Positions 18,334-56,316 of a stretch of 64,000 nucleotides of DNA are shown here, piece after piece (position 1 is the first letter of the stretch; every line of letters begins with the position of its first letter). The notes under the pieces are model-generated. The model had not been told where the DNA came from and made no database searches. It was given only the letters and a program-made list of their open reading frames with translations. The position numbers and the translations under genes were made by a program. The stretch spans positions 254,956 through 318,955 of the forward strand of contig RHHX01000001.1 of assembly GCA_009884515.1 (NCBI GenBank). The letters run 5' to 3'. Source of the stretch: Candidatus Mycoplasma liparidae (lineage in GTDB: Bacteria; Bacillota_I; Bacilli_A; Mycoplasmatales; Mycoplasmoidaceae).

Positions 18334-19464
18334 ATGATTAGTTTATGTTTTGTCTTATTTGGCGATGCTGATTTTAATATTCAAAAATTAAAATTGAATT
18401 TTGATCAAAAATTTAAATATTTAATTTCGTATAACCAAAGAGATGAAAATGAATATTTAAAATTTACCGAATCAGATTTTATAAAAAATAATAAGAATAT
18501 TCATGCTTATTTAGGTAATAAAGTTTATTGAGGTGATATTTCAATTGTTGATTCAATGGTAAATATTATTAATAAAGCTAAAGAAATATTTAACACAAAA
18601 TATGCTTTTGTAATTGATAGTAAAGCTGTTTTAATAAGAAGTTATGATTATATTTTAAATAAACTTGAAAGTAATGAAAATTGTAATTTTTTTGATTTTA
18701 ATGCAAATTGAAAGACAATTTATCGAACAATATATAAAAAAGATGGATTTCATCATTATTATAAGAATATGACGACTTTATTTTATGTATTTAGAAATTA
18801 TGATTTTAAAAACACAACTAGAGAAGTCGGGATGGGAGGTCTAATACGTGTCAAAAAAATAATTTATACTGCTTTTAAAAATAGAAAAAAATATTTAAAA
18901 CAACTTTGAAAAGAAAAAAAATATTCAGAATATTTTTTAATTCAAAAGAAATATTTAAAATCTTTTGGTTGATTTTTTTCAATTCACTTTATTTACTCAA
19001 ACGATAACTTTTGAGTAAGTGAGTATCATGGCTTTAAACCTGAAATTTTCTTCGGAAAAGAAAGTTTAACAGAATATGATAAAGAATTATTAAATAACTG
19101 TTATATGAATTTCGGATTTAATTTTTCTGGTAATTTGAATTACTTATATGATCTTGTAAATTCAGATATTTTTAAGAAAAATTATGAAATGTTTAAAAAT
19201 ATTTGAGCTCCAGAAGAATGTATTTTTTCAGCATCATATATTGAATATAATAAAAATTGAAAAAACGAAAAAACATATACTTATATTTTTAGAAATTTTA
19301 GAGTCTTTTCAAAAAAGAAAAAAAATAATGAATTAAAAGAAATACTTTTTAATGAATCAGATCCTAATTATGGGTATTATTTTTTTTACCGACAAGTTAT
19401 TAATGAAAAAGAATTAGAACAAATTGAAAATTTTTTGATTGAAAATAAAGAAAGAATGAATTAA
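18334..19464 (+). CDS. Trp-rich cytoplasmic protein, paralog A; possible GT14 (core-2/I-branching-like) glycosyltransferase
   Basis: An RBS ggagg lies upstream. The frame was checked as open with 10 TGA codons (376 aa). VYWGDISIVDSMVNII resembles the GT14 V-WG-S-V motif. Confidence 0.6.
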
Positions 19465-19552: not shown

Positions 19553-20677
19553 ATGATTACTTTATGCTGTATTTTATTTGGTGATGCTAATTTTAATATT
19601 GAAAAATTAAAATTAAATTTTAATGAAAAATTTAAGTATTTAATCTCATATAATCAAAGAGATGAAAATGAATATTTGAAATTTGTAAAGTCAGATTTTA
19701 TAAAAAAAAACAAAAATATTCATGTTTATTTAGGTAATAAAGTTTCTTGAGGTGATATTTCAATTGTTGATTCAATGGTAAATATTATTAATAAAGCTAA
19801 AGAAATATTTAATACAAAATATGTCTTCATAATTGATAGTAAAACAGTTTTAATAAGAAGTTATGACTATATTTTAAACAAACTTGAAAGTGATGAAAAT
19901 TGTAATTTTTTTGATTTTAATAAAAATTGAAAAACAATTTACCAAAATAAAAAAGATACTTATTATCATAGACCACGAATTATAACTACTTTGTTCTATT
20001 TATTTAGAGATTATAATTTTAAAACTCCAATGGGAGGAGGGTGAAAAGAAGGTTTAATTCGTATTAATGAAATTCTTAGTATTGCTAAAAAAAATAAAAA
20101 AGAATATTTAAAGCGACTTTGAAGAGAAAAAAAATATTTTGAATATTTTTCAATTCAAAAAAAATACTGAAAATCATTTATCAGAATTTTTTCGATTAAC
20201 TTTATTTCCTCATATAGTAATTTTTGAACAACAGAATATCATGGTGCTGATCCTAAAATCTTTTTCGGAAAAGAAACTTTAACAAAAAATGATGAAGATA
20301 TACTAACTAAATGTTTTCTAAATTTCGGATTTAATTTTTCTGGTAGCCTAAATTATCTATATAATCTCGTAAATTCAGATATTTTTAAGAAAAATTATGA
20401 AAAGTTCAAAAATATTATTGGTCCTGAGGAATGAATTTTTTCTTTATCATATACTGAATATAATAAAAATTGAAAAAATGAAAAATCATATACTTGTACT
20501 TTAAGAAATTCAAAAGCTTATTTTAAAAAGAAAAAAGAAAACGAATTAAATAAAACACTTTTTAATAAATTAGACCCTAATTATGGTTATTATTTTTTTT
20601 ATCGAAAAATCTTTAATGAAAAAGAATTGGAAAATATCAAAAAGTTTATAAATAAAAATGAAAATACATTAAACTAA
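19553..20677 (+). CDS. Paralog B of the preceding gene (tandem duplicate)
   Basis: It is collinear with 18334-19464 over its full length, for example MITLCCILFGDANFNIEKLKLNF versus MISLCFVLFGDADFNIQKLKLNF. The frame was checked as open (374 aa). Confidence 0.6.
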
Positions 20678-24261: not shown

Positions 24262-25645
24262 TTAATAAGAAGGATTATTTGTAATATATTCTCGTTTAAC
24301 TATTTTTCTGATTTCAGTTATTTCTTTTTGGGTTATTTCATTATTTAGAACTTTATAATTGTTTAAAGATTTATTAAAATCTTCGATTGTATATTCTCAA
24401 GCTTTATATTTATCTCATTTTTTGTAATTATTATGATTTTCAATTTGACACATAATTCTTAGTAAATTAGTTTTAAAATTTTCTTCTTGATACCATTCAT
24501 CAATTTGTTTTCATCTGATATCATATAGGGCTTCAAATGACTCATCAGATTTAATTCTAATACCCATATCTATTATTACCTTATACATTCCTGTATTAAT
24601 AATATGGAACTTATATAATTTAGGTAAATAATCATGAAGTTTTTCATAACGGTTCATTAATTCATATTTGCTAACTTCTGTTTTGTTCTTTTTTAATACT
24701 TGAATTTTTCTGTTTTCTATTGCTGAACCATAAGGGCATGATATGCAACCAAGTCTTTTAAATCTTAAATTTTGTTTGTCTAAATCCAAATTATGATCAA
24801 AATTATAAGCTTCGTTAATTTCTAATCTTTTTAGTTTTATATATCTTCAAACATCTTTCTCATTTCAAATAGATAATGGCCTACTCATAGGTTTTTTATT
24901 ATTAAAAATATTACATCCACTATCAATTCATGATTTTTTTCTCATTATTGATTCACCTGCCATGGTTCCAATAAAACTAGGACGATTATCTTTTTTTAAC
25001 CCACCTTTTATATAAGTACAACATTTTTCTGAAAAAGGTATAAGAACCAGATAAGGTGTTTTTTGGGGAATAATCCTGATATTTAGCTGGAATTTCAGGA
25101 AATTTCGACATTTTATCATCAAGTAAAAATAATTGTGCCTTACTTAATTTAAAATATGTTGTACTTTCAATATTAAAAATTCAGCTGCTTAAACCTGTTT
25201 TGCTTTTAGAATTTTTTACCCTATTAAGTAAAACAGATGTTTGTTTTGAAAATATTGGATAGCCCTTTTCATCAAGAATTTGATTTCAGGGCATTTTAGG
25301 AGGTTTTATTAATAATTCTTTTATGTATTCATTTTTTTCTCGATATTTTTCACAAGTGTCTTTAATAAACTTTAAAGTTGATGGAAAGGTAATTTCAACT
25401 GCATAAGCAGGTATTAAATATATTTTTGATTTTAATTCTTTATGAACTTCATTAACAAGATGAAACAAAATACTAGAATCCTTACCGCCACTAAAGGAAA
25501 TAGTTATTTCTTCATATTTATTTTTTTCAGCTCATTCAATAAATTCTTTTATTTTCTTTTTTGCTCAAATAATTTTATCATTTAATGGCATATATTTATT
25601 AAGTTCACTAAAATGAATTTTTCTATTTTCGCTACTATCAATCAT
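24262..25645 (-). pseudogene. PAPS-reductase-like PP-loop ATPase gene interrupted by one frameshift
   Basis: The N-terminal frame (ATG 25645) carries ITISFSGGKDSSILF and ends at TAA 24986-24988. The C-terminal frame opens at 25143, carries IPFSEKCCTYIKG, IGTMAGES and RLGCISCPYGS, and ends at TAA 24262-24264. Confidence 0.75.
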
Positions 25646-25676
25646 AAAAAATATTATATTTGTAGATCATAAAATA

Positions 25677-25700
25677 AAAAGCAACTTTAGTTGCTTTTTA
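25677..25700 (-). terminator. Hairpin overlapping the stop of the PD-(D/E)XK gene
   Basis: The stem is aaaaagcaac / gttgcttttt with a 4-nt loop. Confidence 0.55.
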
Positions 25701-26574
25701 CTGTTAAATAGTTTTTAAGTTCTTCTAATTTTTTTAATGATGAATCTGTTGCATTAATTGTAATACTAGCATCTTTCATTGCTCCTCATTTTTTAACTAT
25801 AATTTCAGGTAAATTTTCATCAATAAATAGATGAACTCGAATATTTTCTAAATCTACTGTATATGTATTTAAAATATCATTTTCAGAATTTGCATTTATA
25901 TCAATTCATTTTTTCTTTTTTGTTTTTAATAAATCAGGAAGCGGTTCTAATAAATCATATAAGTCTAATATAGTCTTTGCATCCCTAATGCAAATAAATT
26001 TAACTATGATTATTTTTTTATTTTTTGCTTCTTCTAATTGTCTTATGCTAATAATAAATTCATTATTTTTTTTAGTTGCAGCTTTTACTTCTAAAAAAGT
26101 ATCACCATACTTAAAATCATATAATTCTTCATCTATTAAACGCAAATTATTTTTGAAATCTATATCTAGAATATTTTTACCTTCTATCATAAATAAAGCT
26201 TCAGCTATATCACCATAAATCCTTTTTCTAATATCTTTTATAAATTTTGATTTTGAAAAATATTCAATTATTTTTTCGAAAGCAGATTGGATTGATTTAT
26301 TTTCGTTTAATAATATTTTATTGATTTCTGTACAAACTTCCTCTAAAAAATCAAGATCAAATACTTTTTTATTAAAAGAAAAGTAATGGGCAGAAATATT
26401 TTTATTAATTTTATTATTAAATATTTTATATTCACCTTTGTATTTAATATGGTCATACTTTATTTTTTCAAGATCACCTAAATGCAGATTATTGTAATCT
26501 ATATTTGAAATAAATAATCCATAATTATCATTGTTATTTATTATATCTATTATTCAATTATTTTGATTTTCCAT
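25687..26574 (-). CDS. PD-(D/E)XK motif protein (nuclease-fold candidate), third gene of the operon
   Basis: The frame was checked as open (295 aa). Motifs are RIYGDIAEALFMIEG, then LYDFKYGDTFLEVKAATKK. The ATG at 26572-26574 overlaps the Z1 gene's 3' end by 17 nt. Confidence 0.7.
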
Positions 26575-27958
26575 AGTTTGTGCCCCTAACTAAATCTAAT
26601 TCTTTATCTATTTTTCTTAATTCTGGCTCGATAAGGGAAATATTTTGAATTTCTCCTTCTTTAAAAAGATTAATATATCTTTCACAATTTTCAAGAGCAT
26701 TAAATGTTTTTTCATCCATTAATATTTTCATATGTTTTACTCGATATTCTTTTCTATACCCAAACCATCTACATCTTTGTAATAAAGTATCAACAGTGAT
26801 AATTTCATTTGGAGTGTTCAGGAATAATTCAACCATTAAATTTTCAAATGTATTACCTCTTGAAAGTAAGTGTCCACCAATAATTATTTTGTATGTTTTA
26901 TTTTCTATTCCTTTTTCTTGATTAATATTTTCGGAATTTAGAATTATTATTTCTATTCCGTCGGTATATTTTTTAACAAATTCAATGAATTTATCTTTTT
27001 CAATTGATGTTTTTTCAAAATACTTATTATAAAAAAAATCATAATTATCTTTCATTGATCTGATTATTTTCGAGCAACTTCTTGCTATTTCTTCATGCTT
27101 TGATGTTTCTAAAAATCAATTAATTAATAAATCAGAATCAATATTTTTTACTTCAAAACTATCTTTTTGTTCAAAATATAAATTATATGAAGCAATAAAA
27201 TGTGTAATTATAGATTTTCTTAATTTTGCATGTTGAATATCTTCGCCAGTTTCTATATCATCTTCTAAATTAGTGATATATATTTCTTCTTTTTTTTCAT
27301 TAAAATATTTTCAACCAGTATAACCATCTCCTGGTTTTCACGAAAATATTTTTCTAGCTTTTAAAGAAATAGAACTACTACTTAAAATATTACCATATGG
27401 TGTTGCAGTAACTTTTAATAGTTTTGAATTATAAAATCTTTCAAATATTTCTTTAATTGCTACATATAATGCACTAGGATTACTTTCTGATTTTTCTATA
27501 TTAATTGAACCAAAATCAGATTCATCATCAATTATTAAAACTTTTTTATCTCTTAAATCAATATCATCAAAAATATTTTTTCTAAGATTATCAATAGTTT
27601 TTGCATTTTTAATGATATTGAACAATGATGGTATATTTTTATTGAATGATTTTTCAGAATCTTTTATAATTTGTATTTGCAATTTTCCTGATGTTGTAAA
27701 TTCTATTAATTCTTTTTCTAATCTTGTTTGTGTCTGATTAAGTAAAGAATTAGTATTTCCTCCAAAAATAATAATATAGTTATATTTTAAGTCAATAGCT
27801 GTTTTAATTATTTCTAATATTTTTCTTGTTTTTCCAGATTGAACTTGTGCGATACATAAAACAATTTCATCTTTATCTGATTCTAAAATATTCCGAAAAT
27901 TATATTCTTTGTTTGTGAATATTTCTTTATTTTTTATTTTTTGACCAAGTTCTCACAT
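26558..27958 (-). CDS. Z1-domain protein with an N-terminal P-loop NTPase module
   Basis: The frame was checked as open (466 aa). Walker A is AQVQSGKTRK and Walker B-like is VLIIDDESDFGS. The Z1 hallmark is IIGGHLLSRGNTFENL...VDTLLQRCRWFGYRKEY. Confidence 0.8.
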
Positions 27959-27969
27959 TTTATCACCCA

Positions 27970-29742
27970 CTATATTTTTTTACAATATGAAACAACATCA
28001 TTAAATGTTGTTATAAAATCTTTTTTAACCATATCATTTATTGTGTTAACTTCATTTGAAATTATCATAATAATAATAATTGGATAAATAATTTTTCCTC
28101 TTATGTTAGTATCCCCATTTATTAAAAGAGGTTTTCAAAAGGAGTGATCATTATTAAAAAAAACTTCAATTCTTTTTTCATCTTGGTTTCTTTTAATTTT
28201 TATTAAATCAGAACCTAATTTATTACTTTCATATATTCTTGCTTCATATTCAGTATCATAAATAAAAAACTTGAAAAAATTATCTCCATTTTCATCCTTA
28301 TTAATTGAACAATTAATATTAGATAAATGATTAGATACAATATTTTTAATAGTTTTTAATTCATCACTATCAACCTTCTCATTTTTTTGATATTTAGTTA
28401 GTTCTACAATATGTTTTATTATTCCTCATAAAGATCTATATAAAAATTTAGTTTGTTCTTGAAGGACTAAATCCGAACTTTTGTCTTTTTCTTCATCATA
28501 TGATCAATCAAATTTAGATTTATTTTTATCAGGACTTTCAATACCAGTTAAATTTATTTCACCATACATTCACCTATAAGTTGGATCAGCTTTTGATTCT
28601 GTAAACATAAGATTACTACATTGTTCACCCTCATTTGGTCCATGATTTATTGCTCTGTCAATATGATATGTAGTCAATCCGGTATATTTTTGTTTGGAAA
28701 AACTATTTTTATCATTTTGAAAATCACCACCTAATATACCAAATGAAATTTTAGTTTCATTTCTATTAAGACGTATTTCTCTTTCAAAAAATAGGTCTTT
28801 CGCACCTAGAAATTTTTCATATGATTCTATTCTTAAATCTAAAAAAGCATTAATGTAGTTAATTGAAGGAAGAACTAATGTTTCGCCTCTTTCACTACAA
28901 TAATTCTTTATTTTTTCTTGTTTTTCGTCATCATTTAAATAATTAATTTCCTCTAATTTTATTAATTCTTTTTTAATTTCTAATTTTATTTCATTAATTT
29001 TATCATCAGATATTTGTTTACTTTTTCCCTTTTGATAATTTATGAATTGACTAAAATTAAACGGAATATTTTTGAATTCTTGAATAAAAACTTTTCCATT
29101 TAAACCACTCCTTTCATCAGCTGCAATGTATGAGAGAGATATTTTTAATCCTCTTTTAATTAATTTAGAATATCTTTGTCCTAATGCATTTTTTATTTCT
29201 GTAAGTCTTGCCTTATTTATTTTTCTATCTCTATAAATATTAGAAATGATAATTTTTGTTCCTGATTCCGAATCAGGAAAAATATTTTCATTTGTTTCTA
29301 CTGCTTGTAATTCTATTGCTTTTGATTTATTTTTTGTTTTTGTTTCAAAATCAATACAATATGTTTTTTCGTCTTTCTTTTTACTATAAACTAAACCATC
29401 TTCTCCAAATCAAAAAATGCCTAATTTCATTCCTATTCCATATTGATTGTAGTCATTATTTGTTTTTCCTTCTCTACTATTAGGTTGCATAGCATTTAAT
29501 AATTCAAGCATATCCATACCATTAGCATTATCACTAATAGTAATCTTTTTGTTTTTAACATCACTATAGTCAATCTCGATATTAATTATTAAACCATCTA
29601 TAGGATTATCAGGATTTTTATTTTTATATGAAGAAACAGAATTGTCAATAAATTCTGATAAAGCTAATCAATGAGTTGTTCTTTCATTTTGATAACCTCT
29701 TATTAATTCATATGTTGCTACAAGTTTTATTGTATTATCCAT
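27970..29742 (-). CDS. GHKL (HATPase_c_3 / MORC-like) ATPase, first gene of the operon
   Basis: The 590-aa frame was checked triplet by triplet and has no TAA or TAG. It is missing from the track because six TGA codons and a scarcity of in-frame start codons break it up. N box is LSEFIDNSVSS, G1 is ITISDNANGMD, and G2 is NQYGIGMKLG. Confidence 0.8.
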
Positions 29743-29803
29743 GCATGTATTCCTTCATTTTTGATCTATAAAATTATATTGAACATTCTTAAATATTAAA
29801 ACC

Positions 29804-29816
29804 AACAATAGTTGTT
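29804..29816. promoter_or_regulatory. Short inverted repeat (aacaa-tag-ttgtt) in the divergent intergenic region; operator candidate
   Basis: It lies between the GHKL-operon start (29742) and the XRE gene start (29855). It is short and could be chance. Confidence 0.2.
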
Positions 29817-29854
29817 CTATAATTATGATTATAAGTAGAAAAATAGAGAATGAG

Positions 29855-30193
29855 ATGGACAAAAATGAAAACAAATCAAAACCCAACGGGGGGGGGGGAG
29901 ACAGTTATAAGCAATATGTTCCTAATATCAAATTATTCATTACTGAATTAAGAAATAAACTACTGAAAATAACTATTGAACAGTTTATTTTCCAAATGGG
30001 CTGAAATAATGTGCAATATTATCAAAAAATAGTTAATGGTTATTATGATAAAAATCATGAAAAAAAATACAGTATTCCAACAATAGATATATTATTTGGA
30101 GGAATTAGTCACGCTATTTATAATTTTGATAATTGAAAAAATAAAGAAAATGAAATTAATGATTTAATAATAGAATTTTTTAAAAATTGATAG
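29855..30193 (+). CDS. XRE-family helix-turn-helix regulator containing a poly-G tract
   Basis: The product is MDKNENKSKPNGGGGDSYKQY..., with an HTH-like ITIEQFIFQMGWNNVQYYQKIVNG. It is in frame with the current G11 tract and ends at TAG 30191-30193 (112 aa). Confidence 0.65.
29888..29898 (+). repeat. Homopolymeric G11 tract (coding, codons 12-15 of the XRE gene)
   Basis: Direct count gives G at 29888-29898. This is the longest G/C run in the window. Confidence 0.95.
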
Positions 30194-30232
30194 AAAAATA
30201 ATCCTATTGATTTTTCAAAAGACAACTATAGT

Positions 30233-30240
30233 TGTATAAT
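30233..30240 (+). promoter_or_regulatory. Extended -10 element TGTATAAT, 8 nt upstream of the HNH gene ATG (near-leaderless mRNA)
   Basis: This is a sequence match only. No clear -35 or SD sequence was seen. Confidence 0.3.
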
Positions 30241-30248
30241 AAATCAAT

Positions 30249-31194
30249 ATGATTAATACGATTGAATGAGAAAAATTTTTAAAAAATATTAACAAAAAAG
30301 CAATATTAAATAGTAAAGAATACAAATGGTTAAAATATCCATATAAACCAGCATTATTATTATCAATAATTGATAGTGTTGAGAGTGGAAAACTGTTCAA
30401 TCAGGATATTGATTTAAATAATTTGAATATTATTAAAAAATATTATGAATATATTACATATAATTATGAATTTTGAAGTTATATTACAAAAAATGAAAAA
30501 TCAAAAAAAGTTTGAGATACCGGGATTAAAAACATTACAGTTCAAAAGCAAGTATTAAGAAATATTTGTGAAATGCCAGCTTCTAAATTGATGACTAATA
30601 ATTCTATTTTTCAATTTGATAATGAAAGCAAGAAAATAAGAATAAATTTATCTATCAATTCAGATGAAATTGAAGAATATAGAAAAGAATTAATTAATGT
30701 TTGTATTTATTCATTAAGAGATAGCAATAAAAATGCTTATGAATGATTAGAAGAAAATAACTATAGTCAATTTAAAGAATATGTTTATGAAAAAATATAT
30801 AGAAAAACTTTGACGTTTTCAAAAAGTAGAGGATATTTGCAACATGTTTTTGCTACTAGTGTTAAAGATAGAGATGGTAAATGCATTGTATGTTGTATTA
30901 ATAGACCGGAATTATTACAAGCATGTCATATCAAACCTTTTTCACAATGTTCTAATCAAATAGAACAAACTGATGCTAATAATGGGATAACTTTGTGTGC
31001 AAATCATCATAAATTATTTGATGTTGGTTTGTTTACATTTGATGAAAAATGAAATATAAAAACTAATAATAAAAAATTATTAGATGATGATATTGATCTT
31101 TTTTTTAAACAATATGAATTTTGTTATTCAAATATTAAAAAAGAATTTGGATTTTTAAATACTTATTTAAAATTTCATAATGAAAAAATATATA

Positions 31195-31211
<17 letters not shown>
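30249..31211 (+). CDS. HNH nuclease (HNH_2-type C-terminal domain) with an uncharacterised N-terminal ~200 aa
   Basis: The frame is open with 6 TGA codons (320 aa). The C-terminal part reads LQACHIKPFSQCSNQIEQTDANNGITLCANHHKLFDVGLFTF, and the N-terminal part reads KYPYKPALLLSIIDSVESGKL. Confidence 0.75.
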
Positions 31212-50206: not shown

Positions 50207-50551
50207 TTACTGCTCATCATATGCTCAATGTCATTCTTCATCAATCTTTATTTTCATTCTTCCAATGTATGAACCTTCACGTTTATGAATTTTTTTTATA
50301 GCAAATGTAATAGAATTAACATTACCATTTAATTTGTTTCCTTTTTCTTGATTTGAAACAAAAGATAAGACTTGGTAATTATTTAAATGACTGATACCTT
50401 TTAAAGCCGAAGGTCAAATATGATCAATATTTCAAGACCCTTTTGAATCACCTTTTTGATAGTTATCATAATGAACAACTCGACCAAACGGATCTATACC
50501 ATTTTTTTTCTTACCAAAATTTTTATTTCAGACATAATCTTTTGTATCCAT
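50207..50551 (-). CDS. Small stand-alone HNH endonuclease (114 aa)
   Basis: The frame was checked as open with 5 TGA codons. It reads SWNIDHIWPSALKGISHLNNYQVLSFVSNQEKGNK. Confidence 0.65.
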
Positions 50552-50629: not shown

Positions 50630-50637
50630 CCCCCCCC
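50630..50637. repeat. Homopolymeric C8 (G8 on the minus strand), about 80 nt upstream of the HNH gene start
   Basis: This is a direct count. It is the second longest G/C run in the window. Confidence 0.9.
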
Positions 50638-55230: not shown

Positions 55231-56316
55231 ATGAAGAAAAATAAAAGTGATGAAATTATTTCTGAATTAGTTGTGCATAATATTTTATATATCGCACTGT
55301 TTATAAAAATTTTTAAAAGTATTCTAAGTAAATCTGCGGATTTAATATTTGTTGATCTGCCATATAATATGACATTAGATAAAATATTAAAAAGACCAAA
55401 CGGCGATGTTTTTAGTGGAATGAATGATGAATGAGATAAATATGAGTCATTAGAATCTTATGATAAAGAATGCTCAATTTGATTAAAAGAATCACTAAGA
55501 ATATTAAAAGATAATGGGAGTTTATGAGTAATAGGTTCGTTTCAAAATATTCATAGATTAGGTTATTTACTTCAGGATTTAGGATGTTGAATTATTAATG
55601 AAATAGTTTAAGAAAAAAGTAACCCTGTTCCTAATTTTGCTGGGACAAGATTTACTAATAGTCAAGAAACATTATTGTGAGTTGTTAAAAATAAGAAAAG
55701 TAAATTTACATTCATTTATAAAACTATAAAACATATTAATGGTGGAAAACAAATGAAATCTATTTGAAGATTTTCTATCGCTGCAGGTAATGAGAGATTA
55801 AAAGATGAAAACGGTATAAAAATTCATTCAAGCACTATTAGAAGGAATAATATTAGCAAGCACAAAGCTACAATGATATAGTTTTAGACTCTTTTAGTGG
55901 AACAGGAACAACTTGCTCACGCTTCTAAATTATGAGGCAGAAGATTTATTGGAATTGAAAAAGATCAAAAATATTTTGAAAGTTCATTAAAAAGGGTGAA
56001 TTCAGTAAAAGAAAACATAGAAAATGACTGTTTAAAATTTGCTGTTTTAGATAAAAACCCCGAACCTGTTTCATTTAAGGATTTGATGAAAAACGGAATT
56101 CTAAAAGAAAATGAACAAATAATAATTAAAGATGAAATTTATAGTTTTAATAATGATGCAACCATAACTTATAATCAAGCTAATCTCTCACTAAATCAAT
56201 TATGTAAAATAATTTTTAAAAAATCAACAAACGCTTGAACAAATATAAACTTGCTTAATGGTGAAAATATAGATTCTTTGAGAGGGAAATATAGAGATAA
56301 AGTTTTATCTTTATAA
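55231..56316 (+). pseudogene. Dead CcrM/M.HinfI-like (beta-class, N6-adenine) DNA methyltransferase gene
   Basis: Motif IV is ADLIFVDLPYNM, followed by NGSLWVIGSFQNIHRLG. TAA at 55609-55611 replaces the conserved Trp in NEIV-stop-EKSNPVPNF. The region downstream of IKIHS, where this family carries its conserved motif, is scrambled by several frameshifts. The C-terminal part GRRFIGIEKDQKYF survives. Confidence 0.75.

Follow-up and report, generated by a model that had tools for sequence, protein, structure and literature searches.

Does a long run of guanines just inside a small gene, in otherwise AT-rich DNA beside a cluster of nuclease genes, act as a genetic switch, and if so what does it switch? 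The question is raised by a stretch of 64,000 nucleotides from Candidatus Mycoplasma liparidae (contig RHHX01000001.1, positions 254,956 to 318,955 of the forward strand; hereafter the window, numbered from its first letter). An earlier note, made from the letters of this stretch alone, had picked out a G11 homopolymer in a small gene and had read it as a phase-variable switch in a controller of the flanking defence genes. The phase-variable reading is supported by what we find in homologues of the gene, which in nine lineages carry repeats of varying length and sequence at the same position. We think it likely that the G11 tract serves a small DNA-binding regulator as its contingency (phase-variation) repeat, and that this regulator would control the surrounding island through palindromic sites.

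A solitary G tract follows the start of a small gene

The window has a G+C content of 23.5% and TGA is read as tryptophan (genetic code 4). Because of this reading of TGA, open reading frame (ORF) calls made with table 11 are broken up in every gene; the gene models used here are table-4 translations, which give clean ORFs. The elements on which the argument turns are the following.

29855..30193, + strand: small ORF of the putative regulator, 112 amino acids (aa) by table-4 translation, MDKNENKSKPN-GGGG-DSYKQ...
29888..29898, + strand: G11 simple-sequence repeat (the proposed switch), codons 12-15 (GGG GGG GGG GGa) of the small ORF
29855..29857, + strand: start codon ATG_a, which shares the frame of the protein body when the tract is G8, G11 or G14
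29865..29867, + strand: alternative start ATG_b, which shares its frame with the ATG at 29850-29852 and joins the body at G9 and G12

The uninterrupted G11 at 29888-29898 is as the earlier note described it. It is the sole G run of six or more in the 64 kb, the only other G or C run of that size being a C8 at 50630-50637, and on composition a G or C run at least 11 long would be met about 7e-6 times per window. Table-4 translation confirms that the tract encodes GGGG at codons 12-15 of an in-frame 112-aa ORF, using a codon, GGG, that makes up just 6.2% of the glycine codons in the window's long ORFs. Contingency loci are characterised by G or C runs of about 7 or more, which are long enough for slippage, and the G11 is such a run. 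They are also characterised by altered expression upon a change of one unit, and here the start codon(s) stand on one side of the tract and the folded domain on the other.

Reading from the ATG at 29855, the gain of one G produces ...GGGGRQL* with a stop three codons on, and the loss of one G a stop after 20 codons. A gain also opens the ATGs at 29850 and 29865. Because these two ATGs then join the frame of the body, one additional G is not necessarily an OFF state in this genome. No upstream ATG is in frame at G10 or G13. The window's switch is thus potentially one between ON, ON by an alternative start and OFF, with one frame in three lacking a start, rather than a simple ON/OFF for each step of one nucleotide. 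ATG_b is the homologue of the start used at G11 in three close relatives (L001-L003, below).

Tract length differs between near-identical sequences

A search of 5.8 billion proteins returned just two related clusters. The contigs of these clusters, together with scans of GTDB genomes and JGI metagenomes, yielded eight syntenic loci (L001-L008) with about 83% DNA identity to the window, whose ortholog proteins are 78-83% identical in amino acid sequence to that of the window. All of the tract comparisons reported here are between assemblies, not reads. The tract is present at the same position in all eight loci, as G11 in L001-L003, like the window itself, and as G12 in L004-L008. Over 11.6 kb L001 (G11) shows 99.2% identity to L008 (G12), and L002 (G11) shows 99.4% identity to L006 (G12). 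Length polymorphism among near-identical sequences, a further characteristic of contingency loci, is therefore seen in these G11/G12 pairs, and it recurs in the C10/C11/C12 contigs described below. The earlier note had proposed a comparison of tract length among strains, and the outcome is positive both within the clade (G11/G12) and among these distant, near-identical contigs (C10/C11/C12). Separate records of identical sequence agree on the length of the tract (L002 with L003, L006 with L008, L016 with L017 and L022 with L023). Two of the eight related loci are deposited as 'uncultured Ureaplasma sp.'.

Protein records add further alleles. Exact-sequence look-up of cluster members identified P0067, a protein which implies a G11 allele on an L006/L008-type background, and P0068 (119 aa, MEKNEKQVKNQR-GGGG-YKQ...), a member of the same 90% cluster that is explicable only by a G13 tract read from the alternative ATG. 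The window's own species is represented at the protein level by one full-length variant (P0064) and one truncated variant (P0065).

Downstream of the tract, the body of the ORF is intact in all nine loci of the window's clade, with pairwise ratios of nonsynonymous to synonymous substitution (dN/dS) of 0.03-0.2. These values indicate that purifying selection acts on the small ORF in this clade, out-of-frame alleles included; out-of-frame copies are not decaying, because their bodies are intact at such ratios, which lends indirect support to reversible, frequent switching. The two ATGs upstream of the tract, which lie in two frames, are likewise conserved in 9/9 loci. In relatives L004-L008 the G12 tract is out of frame from both conserved ATGs, and for this reason the gene has been called there as a 78-aa fragment (P0002). 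The contig of L006, a metagenome-assembled genome in GTDB, starts 36 nt upstream of its G12 tract. The assembly seems to break there, as expected if the reads beside the repeat were heterogeneous or of poor quality.

The repeat is kept while its sequence changes

An hmmsearch of 1.84 billion representatives gave 13 clusters and a profile search of 90% clusters gave 44. The family splits into two groups, subfamilies A and B, and the window's protein belongs to B. Subfamily A proteins are about 97-100 aa long and share the motif 'NEAKMLEEIR...'; the examples fetched have neither the repeat nor a defence-gene context. Members of subfamily B display runs of proline or glycine near the N-terminus, or have been called only from an internal methionine, and in the DNA a repeat occupies the same 5' place in every subfamily-B lineage that was fetched. 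Outside the window's clade, the loci carry the following repeats.

L009: C9, in frame
L010: C9, frame not scorable because the contig is cut
L011: (CA)11, out of frame
L012: C8, out of frame
L013, L015 and L014: C10, C11 and C12 respectively, in frame at C11 only
L016 and L017: C10, out of frame
L022 and L023: C13, in frame
L024: C13, out of frame from a GTG start

L013, L014 and L015 come from three sequencing runs and, besides the tract, differ by 0-1 substitutions in 1.7-2.4 kb. Across the 21 homologous loci, representing nine lineages, the repertoire of repeats is G11-12, C8-13 and (CA)11; the gene is in frame in 8, out of frame in 12 and unscorable in 1, and each of the 12 out-of-frame loci is exactly one repeat unit away from an in-frame length. 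Only one length in three has an in-frame upstream start in the eight lineages other than the window's. Among the loci for which all runs were listed (the window's-clade relatives, L009 and L022-L024) there is no other G or C run of six or more, and in the window's clade, L009 and L022-L024 the enzyme genes of the adjoining island themselves carry no repeat.

The repeat encodes glycine, proline or histidine-threonine depending on lineage and uses the rarest codons (CCC, for example, accounts for 2.7% of proline codons). It is therefore the mutability that is conserved and not the peptide, since the same position in the gene carries poly-G, poly-C or (CA)n in nine lineages. Selection at the protein level for a glycine linker was considered and ruled out, because homologs encode proline runs or histidine-threonine repeats there, in the rarest codons. 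The use of different repeats at the same site in different lineages amounts to unusually clear evidence of selection on mutability itself.

Palindromic sites lie at predicted promoters of the island

The gene order around the tract was described correctly by the earlier note. Pfam confirms the genes of a GHKL/Z1/PD-(D/E)XK operon that diverges from the small gene across 112 bp (29743-29854; the upstream gene starts at 29742), and an HNH nuclease gene (Pfam HNH_2, 30249-31211) follows the small gene. Beyond the divergent operon is a PAPS_reduct gene which that note did not mention. The intergenic regions contain the following predicted elements.

29802..29815, + strand: operator-like site O1 (CCAACAATAGTTGT), imperfectly palindromic and taking up the spacer between the -35 and -10 boxes of the small gene
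29796..29823, + strand: predicted promoter of the small gene, TTAAAA-16 nt-TATAAT, with its -10 at 29818-29823 (10/12 matches)
29773..29778, - strand: inferred -10 (TATAAT) of the GHKL/Z1/DUF4420 operon, read by eye and missed by the two-hexamer scan
30222..30235, + strand: operator-like site O2 (ACAACTATAGTTGT), perfectly palindromic over 14 bp, which abuts and overlaps the -10 box (TGTATAAT) of HNH
30212..30240, + strand: predicted HNH promoter, TTTTCA-17 nt-TATAAT (10/12 matches), with a -10 that ends 8 nt before the ATG
25681..25694, - strand: operator-like site O3 (GCAACTAAAGTTGC), which belongs to the longer inverted repeat AAAAAGCAAC/GTTGCTTTTT and overlaps the DUF4420 stop

An alignment of five loci displays two invariant blocks within intergenic DNA that otherwise diverges. 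Exact copies of the motif CAACWATAGTTGT stand at 29803-29815 and 30222-30235, and with one mismatch allowed there are 5 matches in place of the 0.24 expected. The relaxed palindrome core CAACWAWAGTTG occurs exactly three times in 64 kb, against an expectation of 0.05, with its third site at 25682-25693, and all three sites are located at promoters of the defence cluster: the regulator's own, that of HNH and that of the PAPS-reductase gene. The two best promoter-like matches in the region are those of the small gene and of HNH, the two that contain the motif. The predicted promoter of the small gene is invariant in all five aligned loci (the window and L001-L004), and a block, GATCTAYAAAATTATATWGAACA, in the -10 region of the GHKL operon is conserved in the same five. 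O1 precedes by about 42 nt the point at which the divergent GHKL transcript is inferred to begin, and the position of O1 is unchanged in L001-L005, L007 and L008. O3 lies about 36 nt upstream of the PAPS_reduct start (25645) and occupies the same intergenic position in L001, L002, L005, L007 and L008. A TATAAT box at 25653-25658 is found 7 nt before the PAPS_reduct ATG at 25645. Because the predicted -10 boxes end 7-8 nt before the respective ATGs (30235-30251 and 25643-25658), the HNH and PAPS_reduct mRNAs are probably leaderless or nearly so; leaderless transcripts are known for some genes under the control of controller (C) proteins. Terminator scans around both intergenic regions found none.

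The same arrangement extends to distant relatives. A palindrome lies 17-28 nt ahead of the HNH gene in all the lineages that possess one; in the distant lineages it reads (C)CAACTATAGTTG(G) and has a TATAAT-like box beside it. More copies precede PAPS_reduct, the GHKL operon (in L009) and a SNF2 helicase cargo gene (in L016). The motif CAACTAWAGT precedes each unit in L016 131-4856, L022 811-3259 and L009 7348-11360. In subfamily A, a related sequence, GTAACTATGGTTGG, lies upstream of the family gene itself (L018, approximately 318-331; also L019 and L020), and there are hints that autoregulation through a site of the AACTAT-GTT type is ancestral to the family.

Judged by its placement in the sequence, the palindrome set bears the hallmark of a small regulon in which each transcription unit has an operator of its own. 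The small protein, adjacent and always linked, would be the obvious candidate for binding it. The suggestion that the small gene controls the flanking nucleases thus gains indirect support from an operator-like palindrome that occurs only at the cluster's promoters.

The small protein has a predicted helical core

The earlier note had labelled the product as an XRE-type helix-turn-helix (HTH) protein. That label found no Pfam, NCBIfam or PDB sequence match behind it, and the evidence from the fold is just suggestive. Searches with the single protein, with a profile of 13 members and with the members one by one gave no meaningful match in Pfam, NCBIfam, PADLOC or PDB sequences; the window protein and the 13 family members matched no HTH_3/XRE model in Pfam or NCBIfam at expectation values (E) of up to 1-10, no HTH match was returned among PDB sequences, and no homology to the C-protein family was found in the sequence searches. 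By these comparisons the small-protein family is not a recognised member of HTH_3 and is covered by no domain database.

An AlphaFold2 model of the ortholog P0001, computed from a 13-sequence alignment, has a predicted local distance difference test (pLDDT) score of 81 and a predicted template modelling (pTM) score of 0.71 (an input of two sequences gave an unusable model, pLDDT 43). The model contains helices at residues 20-31, 36-43, 48-55, 72-85 and 93-105 and a short hairpin insert. Residues 1-15 have a pLDDT below 50, and the N-terminal 15-20 or so residues, which include the glycine run, are predicted to be disordered ahead of a confident helical core. Foldseek comparison of the model with PDB and BFVD gave no significant match (none with E below 0.3). 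The weak PDB matches are mostly to C.Esp1396I, C.BclI, C.AhdI, Aca1, DdrO and lambda cI, with template modelling (TM) scores of 0.5-0.64 per target and E above 0.3, and the weak, non-significant BFVD matches are mostly to Cro/CI/XRE proteins. Two distant members of subfamily A bear the UniProt-derived names 'HTH cro/C1-type domain' and 'XRE family'. On the model, an XRE-like DNA-binding fold for the small protein is plausible but unproven.

A proposed repeat-gated controller and its alternatives

The mechanism that we favour starts from what is demonstrated here, namely the tract, its conservation and length polymorphism, the logic of the frames, purifying selection and the conserved placement of the motif. 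Within a population, we infer, slipped-strand mispairing at replication would add or remove a G and so move the folded body into or out of the frame set by the start codon(s), such that single cells would then either make the regulator or not. In the window, G11 would be ON from the ATG at 29855, G12 and G9 would be ON only with the ATG at 29850 or 29865, and G10 and G13 would be OFF. A dimer of the regulator would most likely bind CAAC-WAW-AGTTG at O1, O2 and O3, repressing its own gene and HNH and modulating the PAPS-reductase unit and the divergent GHKL/Z1/PD-(D/E)XK unit, and in this way the repeat would flip the whole island between two expression states in a clonal population. Repression is the expected sign at the regulator's own promoter and that of HNH because the site occupies the spacer/-10 region of promoters with a consensus -10, and we consider it fairly probable that HNH is repressed. 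At PAPS_reduct and GHKL, with the centre of the site about 41-42 nt ahead of where transcription is inferred to begin, repression and activation are both possible.

Several points weigh against this mechanism. The small protein is without significant sequence match to any HTH family, and the structural matches of its model to XRE and C-protein folds are non-significant (E above 0.3). A factor other than the small protein could be the binder of the palindromes, and O3, as part of a hairpin-like inverted repeat that ends the upstream operon, could be a terminator-like element. Since the window's clade has two ATGs ahead of the tract, each in a frame of its own, two lengths in three may be ON there, which would make the switch less binary; transcriptional slippage on 11-13 G could also leave OFF alleles leaky. 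Finally, homopolymer lengths in short-read assemblies can be miscalled at any single locus.

A first alternative retains the DNA-binding protein and reverses its sign. The regulator would be an activator like the classical C proteins, with in-frame alleles turning on HNH and the defence genes and out-of-frame alleles leaving the island silent. The frequency of out-of-frame alleles (12/20) would be tolerable if OFF means a silent island, and the centres of O3 and O1 fall about 41-42 nt before the transcript starts inferred for PAPS_reduct and GHKL, a typical position for a class II activator. C proteins, moreover, classically activate the C/R promoter at low concentration (PMC12707154). At HNH and at the regulator's own promoter, however, in those lineages that show a TATAAT, a single palindrome fills the spacer and abuts or overlaps the consensus -10 (TGTATAAT, TATAAT). 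Such strong -10 boxes need no activation, and a protein bound there should block RNA polymerase; in addition, the Mollicutes C protein HsdC is reported to repress its operon (PMC12707154). We regard activation as a real but unlikely explanation.

The second alternative bears on the tract rather than on the protein. Instead of a binary switch the repeat might be a tuner of expression, with polymerase or ribosomal slippage and two start codons giving a graded amount of regulator at every length. This would fit the two-frame ATGs conserved upstream of the tract in 9/9 clade loci and the P0068 protein, which shows the alternative ATG frame open at G13, and frameshifted mycoplasma reporter constructs with simple sequence repeats kept a low, frame-dependent expression (bioRxiv 10.64898/2026.04.01.715767). 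It is doubtful nonetheless: in the other eight lineages only one length in three has its upstream start in frame, no in-frame ATG is available for G12 in the relatives or for G10 in the window, and the polymorphism is observed at the level of DNA.

It is improbable, to a further degree, that the small protein is an antitoxin-like inhibitor which acts on the HNH nuclease at the protein level and not through the palindromes. The same-strand order of small gene and nuclease gene resembles that of antitoxin-toxin pairs, many XRE-type antitoxins exist, and one weak BFVD match is named an antidote protein. Yet an intact HNH gene stands beside an out-of-frame allele in at least 8 loci, which argues that the protein is not needed to survive the nuclease; because this coexistence is found in many loci, the small protein is not an essential antitoxin. 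Conserved palindromes at several promoters, those of genes other than HNH included, also call for a DNA-binding factor.

Least probable is that the length differences are sequencing or assembly errors, or the out-of-frame copies decaying pseudogenes, with no reversible switching: the comparison sequences are all metagenome assemblies, homopolymers are error-prone and the start of the L006 contig 36 nt before its tract hints at assembly trouble, but the different records of identical sequence listed above agree on length, errors cannot explain long G, C or CA repeats at one gene position in nine lineages against codon bias, and the ORF bodies are intact (dN/dS 0.03-0.2 in the window's clade) with every out-of-frame allele one unit from an in-frame length.

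Genes of the island and neighbouring features

The enzyme genes of the island in the window are the following.

30249..31211, + strand: HNH_2 nuclease gene, 320 aa, 55 nt downstream of the small gene (Pfam HNH_2, 2e-14; PADLOC HNH models)
27970..29742, - strand: GHKL ATPase gene (HATPase_c_3), first of the divergent operon (Pfam)
26558..27970, - strand: Z1 and superfamily 2 (SF2) helicase-like (ResIII) gene (Pfam, PADLOC scan)
25687..26574, - strand: DUF4420 gene, putative PD-(D/E)XK (Pfam)
24262..25645, - strand: PAPS_reduct (BrxP/DndC-like) gene, broken by one extra C at 25037-25038

Subfamily-B loci share a conserved core of PAPS_reduct, the small gene and HNH_2. In most lineages (L009, L011, L013, L016, L022 and L024) the small gene stays linked to PAPS_reduct and/or HNH_2, and in L012 neither gene is adjacent. 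GHKL/Z1/DUF4420 is found in some lineages and is absent in L011 and L022; SNF2/GmrSD_N takes its place in L016. The cargo varies accordingly, with a SNF2/ResIII helicase and GmrSD_N in L016 and with GHKL/Z1 on the other side in L009. In L022, HNH lies downstream of PAPS_reduct on the strand opposite to the small gene.

The best PADLOC match of PAPS_reduct is BrxP (E of 4e-14 to 2e-20), and the L016 ortholog also weakly matches DndC. The HNH protein has below-cutoff NCBIfam matches to PT-DNA_restrict (NF045808, 'phosphorothioated DNA-binding restriction endonuclease') and to the MAG4270 family. NCBIfam matches of the island enzymes are far below the curated cut-offs (33-50 bits against 180, and 20 against 290 for DndC). 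Neither a full Dnd/Ssp gene set (DndA-E or SspA-D) nor that of BREX type 4 (BrxA, B, C and L with BrxP) is present, with no DndA/B/D/E, Ssp or other BREX genes nearby. From its gene content, a modification-plus-restriction module is a reasonable reading of the island.

PAPS_reduct is intact in relatives (464 aa), and the window copy consists of two overlapping ORFs, with ACC where L001 has AC. This frameshift was considered as a second repeat switch and ruled out, being a lone extra C in 'ACC' outside any tract; because it is not in a repeat tract, the break is probably either a true inactivating mutation or a sequencing error. In the window genome the broken PAPS_reduct coincides with an in-frame regulator.

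Elsewhere in the window, a 114-aa ORF on the minus strand (50207-50551) shows a weak, below-cutoff match to HNH_4. The C8 at 50630-50637 (+ strand, hence G8 in the orientation of this ORF) is about 80 nt upstream of it and could be a second promoter-proximal variable tract beside another small nuclease gene. A short ORF at 55897-56316 weakly matches, below cut-off, the C-terminal end of N6_N4_Mtase and is probably a remnant of a DNA methyltransferase gene. The tandem paralogous ORFs 18334-19464 and 19553-20677 (376 and 374 aa) have nearly identical N-termini, MI(S/T)LC..LFGDA.FNI.KLKLNF.

Taken to its full extent, the argument would run that, among the small regulators of AT-rich Mollicutes, one subfamily has gained or retained a hypermutable repeat (poly-G, poly-C or CA) directly after the start codon on repeated occasions, as the stochastic master switch of a previously undescribed PAPS-reductase and HNH_2 module with cargo wired in through the same operator; we give this broader proposal an even chance. 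If it is true, whole defence islands and not single enzymes are phase-varied, via their controller. With the repeat in the controller and a likely operator before each unit, one slippage event could arm or disarm several nucleases together with a putative DNA-modifying enzyme. For bacteria with very few regulators this would be an economical hedge between defence on the one hand and DNA uptake or the cost of autoimmunity on the other. The analysis also yields a concrete candidate operator sequence and an uncharacterised PAPS-reductase/HNH module.

Comparison with known systems

Phasevarions, phase-variable regulators and C proteins are already established; what is new here is the proposed repeat-gated controller, whose protein family is unannotated, whose candidate operator is new and whose enzyme module is uncharacterised. 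The closest likeness is to the C proteins of restriction-modification (R-M) systems, such as C.PvuII, C.AhdI, C.Esp1396I and the HsdC of Mycoplasma gallisepticum, and Mollicutes do use C proteins for R-M control (PMC5282649). These too are small helical proteins (about 80-120 aa) encoded on the same strand just upstream of a nuclease gene, as the small gene here lies 55 nt upstream of HNH_2 on the same strand. Like them, the small protein would have palindromic sites in its own promoter and that of its partner, as predicted here from the sequence, and the weak Foldseek matches of its model are mainly to C.Esp1396I, C.BclI and C.AhdI. The differences are in the operator, the partners and the protein itself. 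The island operator CAACWAWAGTTG differs from the canonical GACT/AGTC C-box and from the Mollicutes C-protein motifs (GTGTTAN5)2, AACGAAT repeats and GGACN5GTCC (PMC5282649), and there is one palindrome per promoter where C proteins have paired C-boxes. The partners are a PAPS-reductase-family protein and HNH_2 instead of a methyltransferase and a type II endonuclease, and the small protein, unlike C proteins, matches no HTH_3/XRE model in sequence. Our literature search found no description of a C or controller gene that carries a hypermutable repeat.

In its enzymes the island resembles BREX type 4 BrxP or DndC and the phosphorothioate (PT)-sensing HNH proteins (ScoMcrA-like, 'PT-DNA_restrict'), with sub-threshold similarity of PAPS_reduct and HNH_2 to these. 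In its repeat it resembles the phase-variable R-M genes and phasevarions of mycoplasmas, which likewise have a G or C homopolymer of 6-13 or a dinucleotide repeat within an ORF of a small, AT-rich Mollicute genome (PMC9465063, PMC5909438) and in which strains differ in repeat length, with truncation of the product as the result. Fragment-length analysis has demonstrated variation in poly(G) tracts of 6-11 within mycoplasma R-M genes, and M. agalactiae carries poly(G) in a CpG methyltransferase gene and poly(GA) in a type III mod gene (PMC9465063). In those systems the repeat is in the enzyme gene (mod, hsdS or dcm) and methylation is changed directly, whereas here it is in a dedicated regulator.

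The placement of the repeat has its nearest parallels among phase-variable regulators. These include Bordetella bvgS, with a poly-C tract, and Campylobacter flgR/flgS, with homopolymers. In Klebsiella rmpA, as proposed here, a homopolymer in the ORF of a regulator (poly-G) gives stochastic ON/OFF control of a regulon (bioRxiv 10.1101/2025.09.12.675794, PMC8355987). Regulators of the rmpA, bvgS and flgR/flgS type control capsule, virulence or motility, whereas the candidate regulon of the small protein is a DNA-defence island. Unlike in those regulators, the repeat is conserved across a whole protein subfamily, in a sequence that differs from lineage to lineage.

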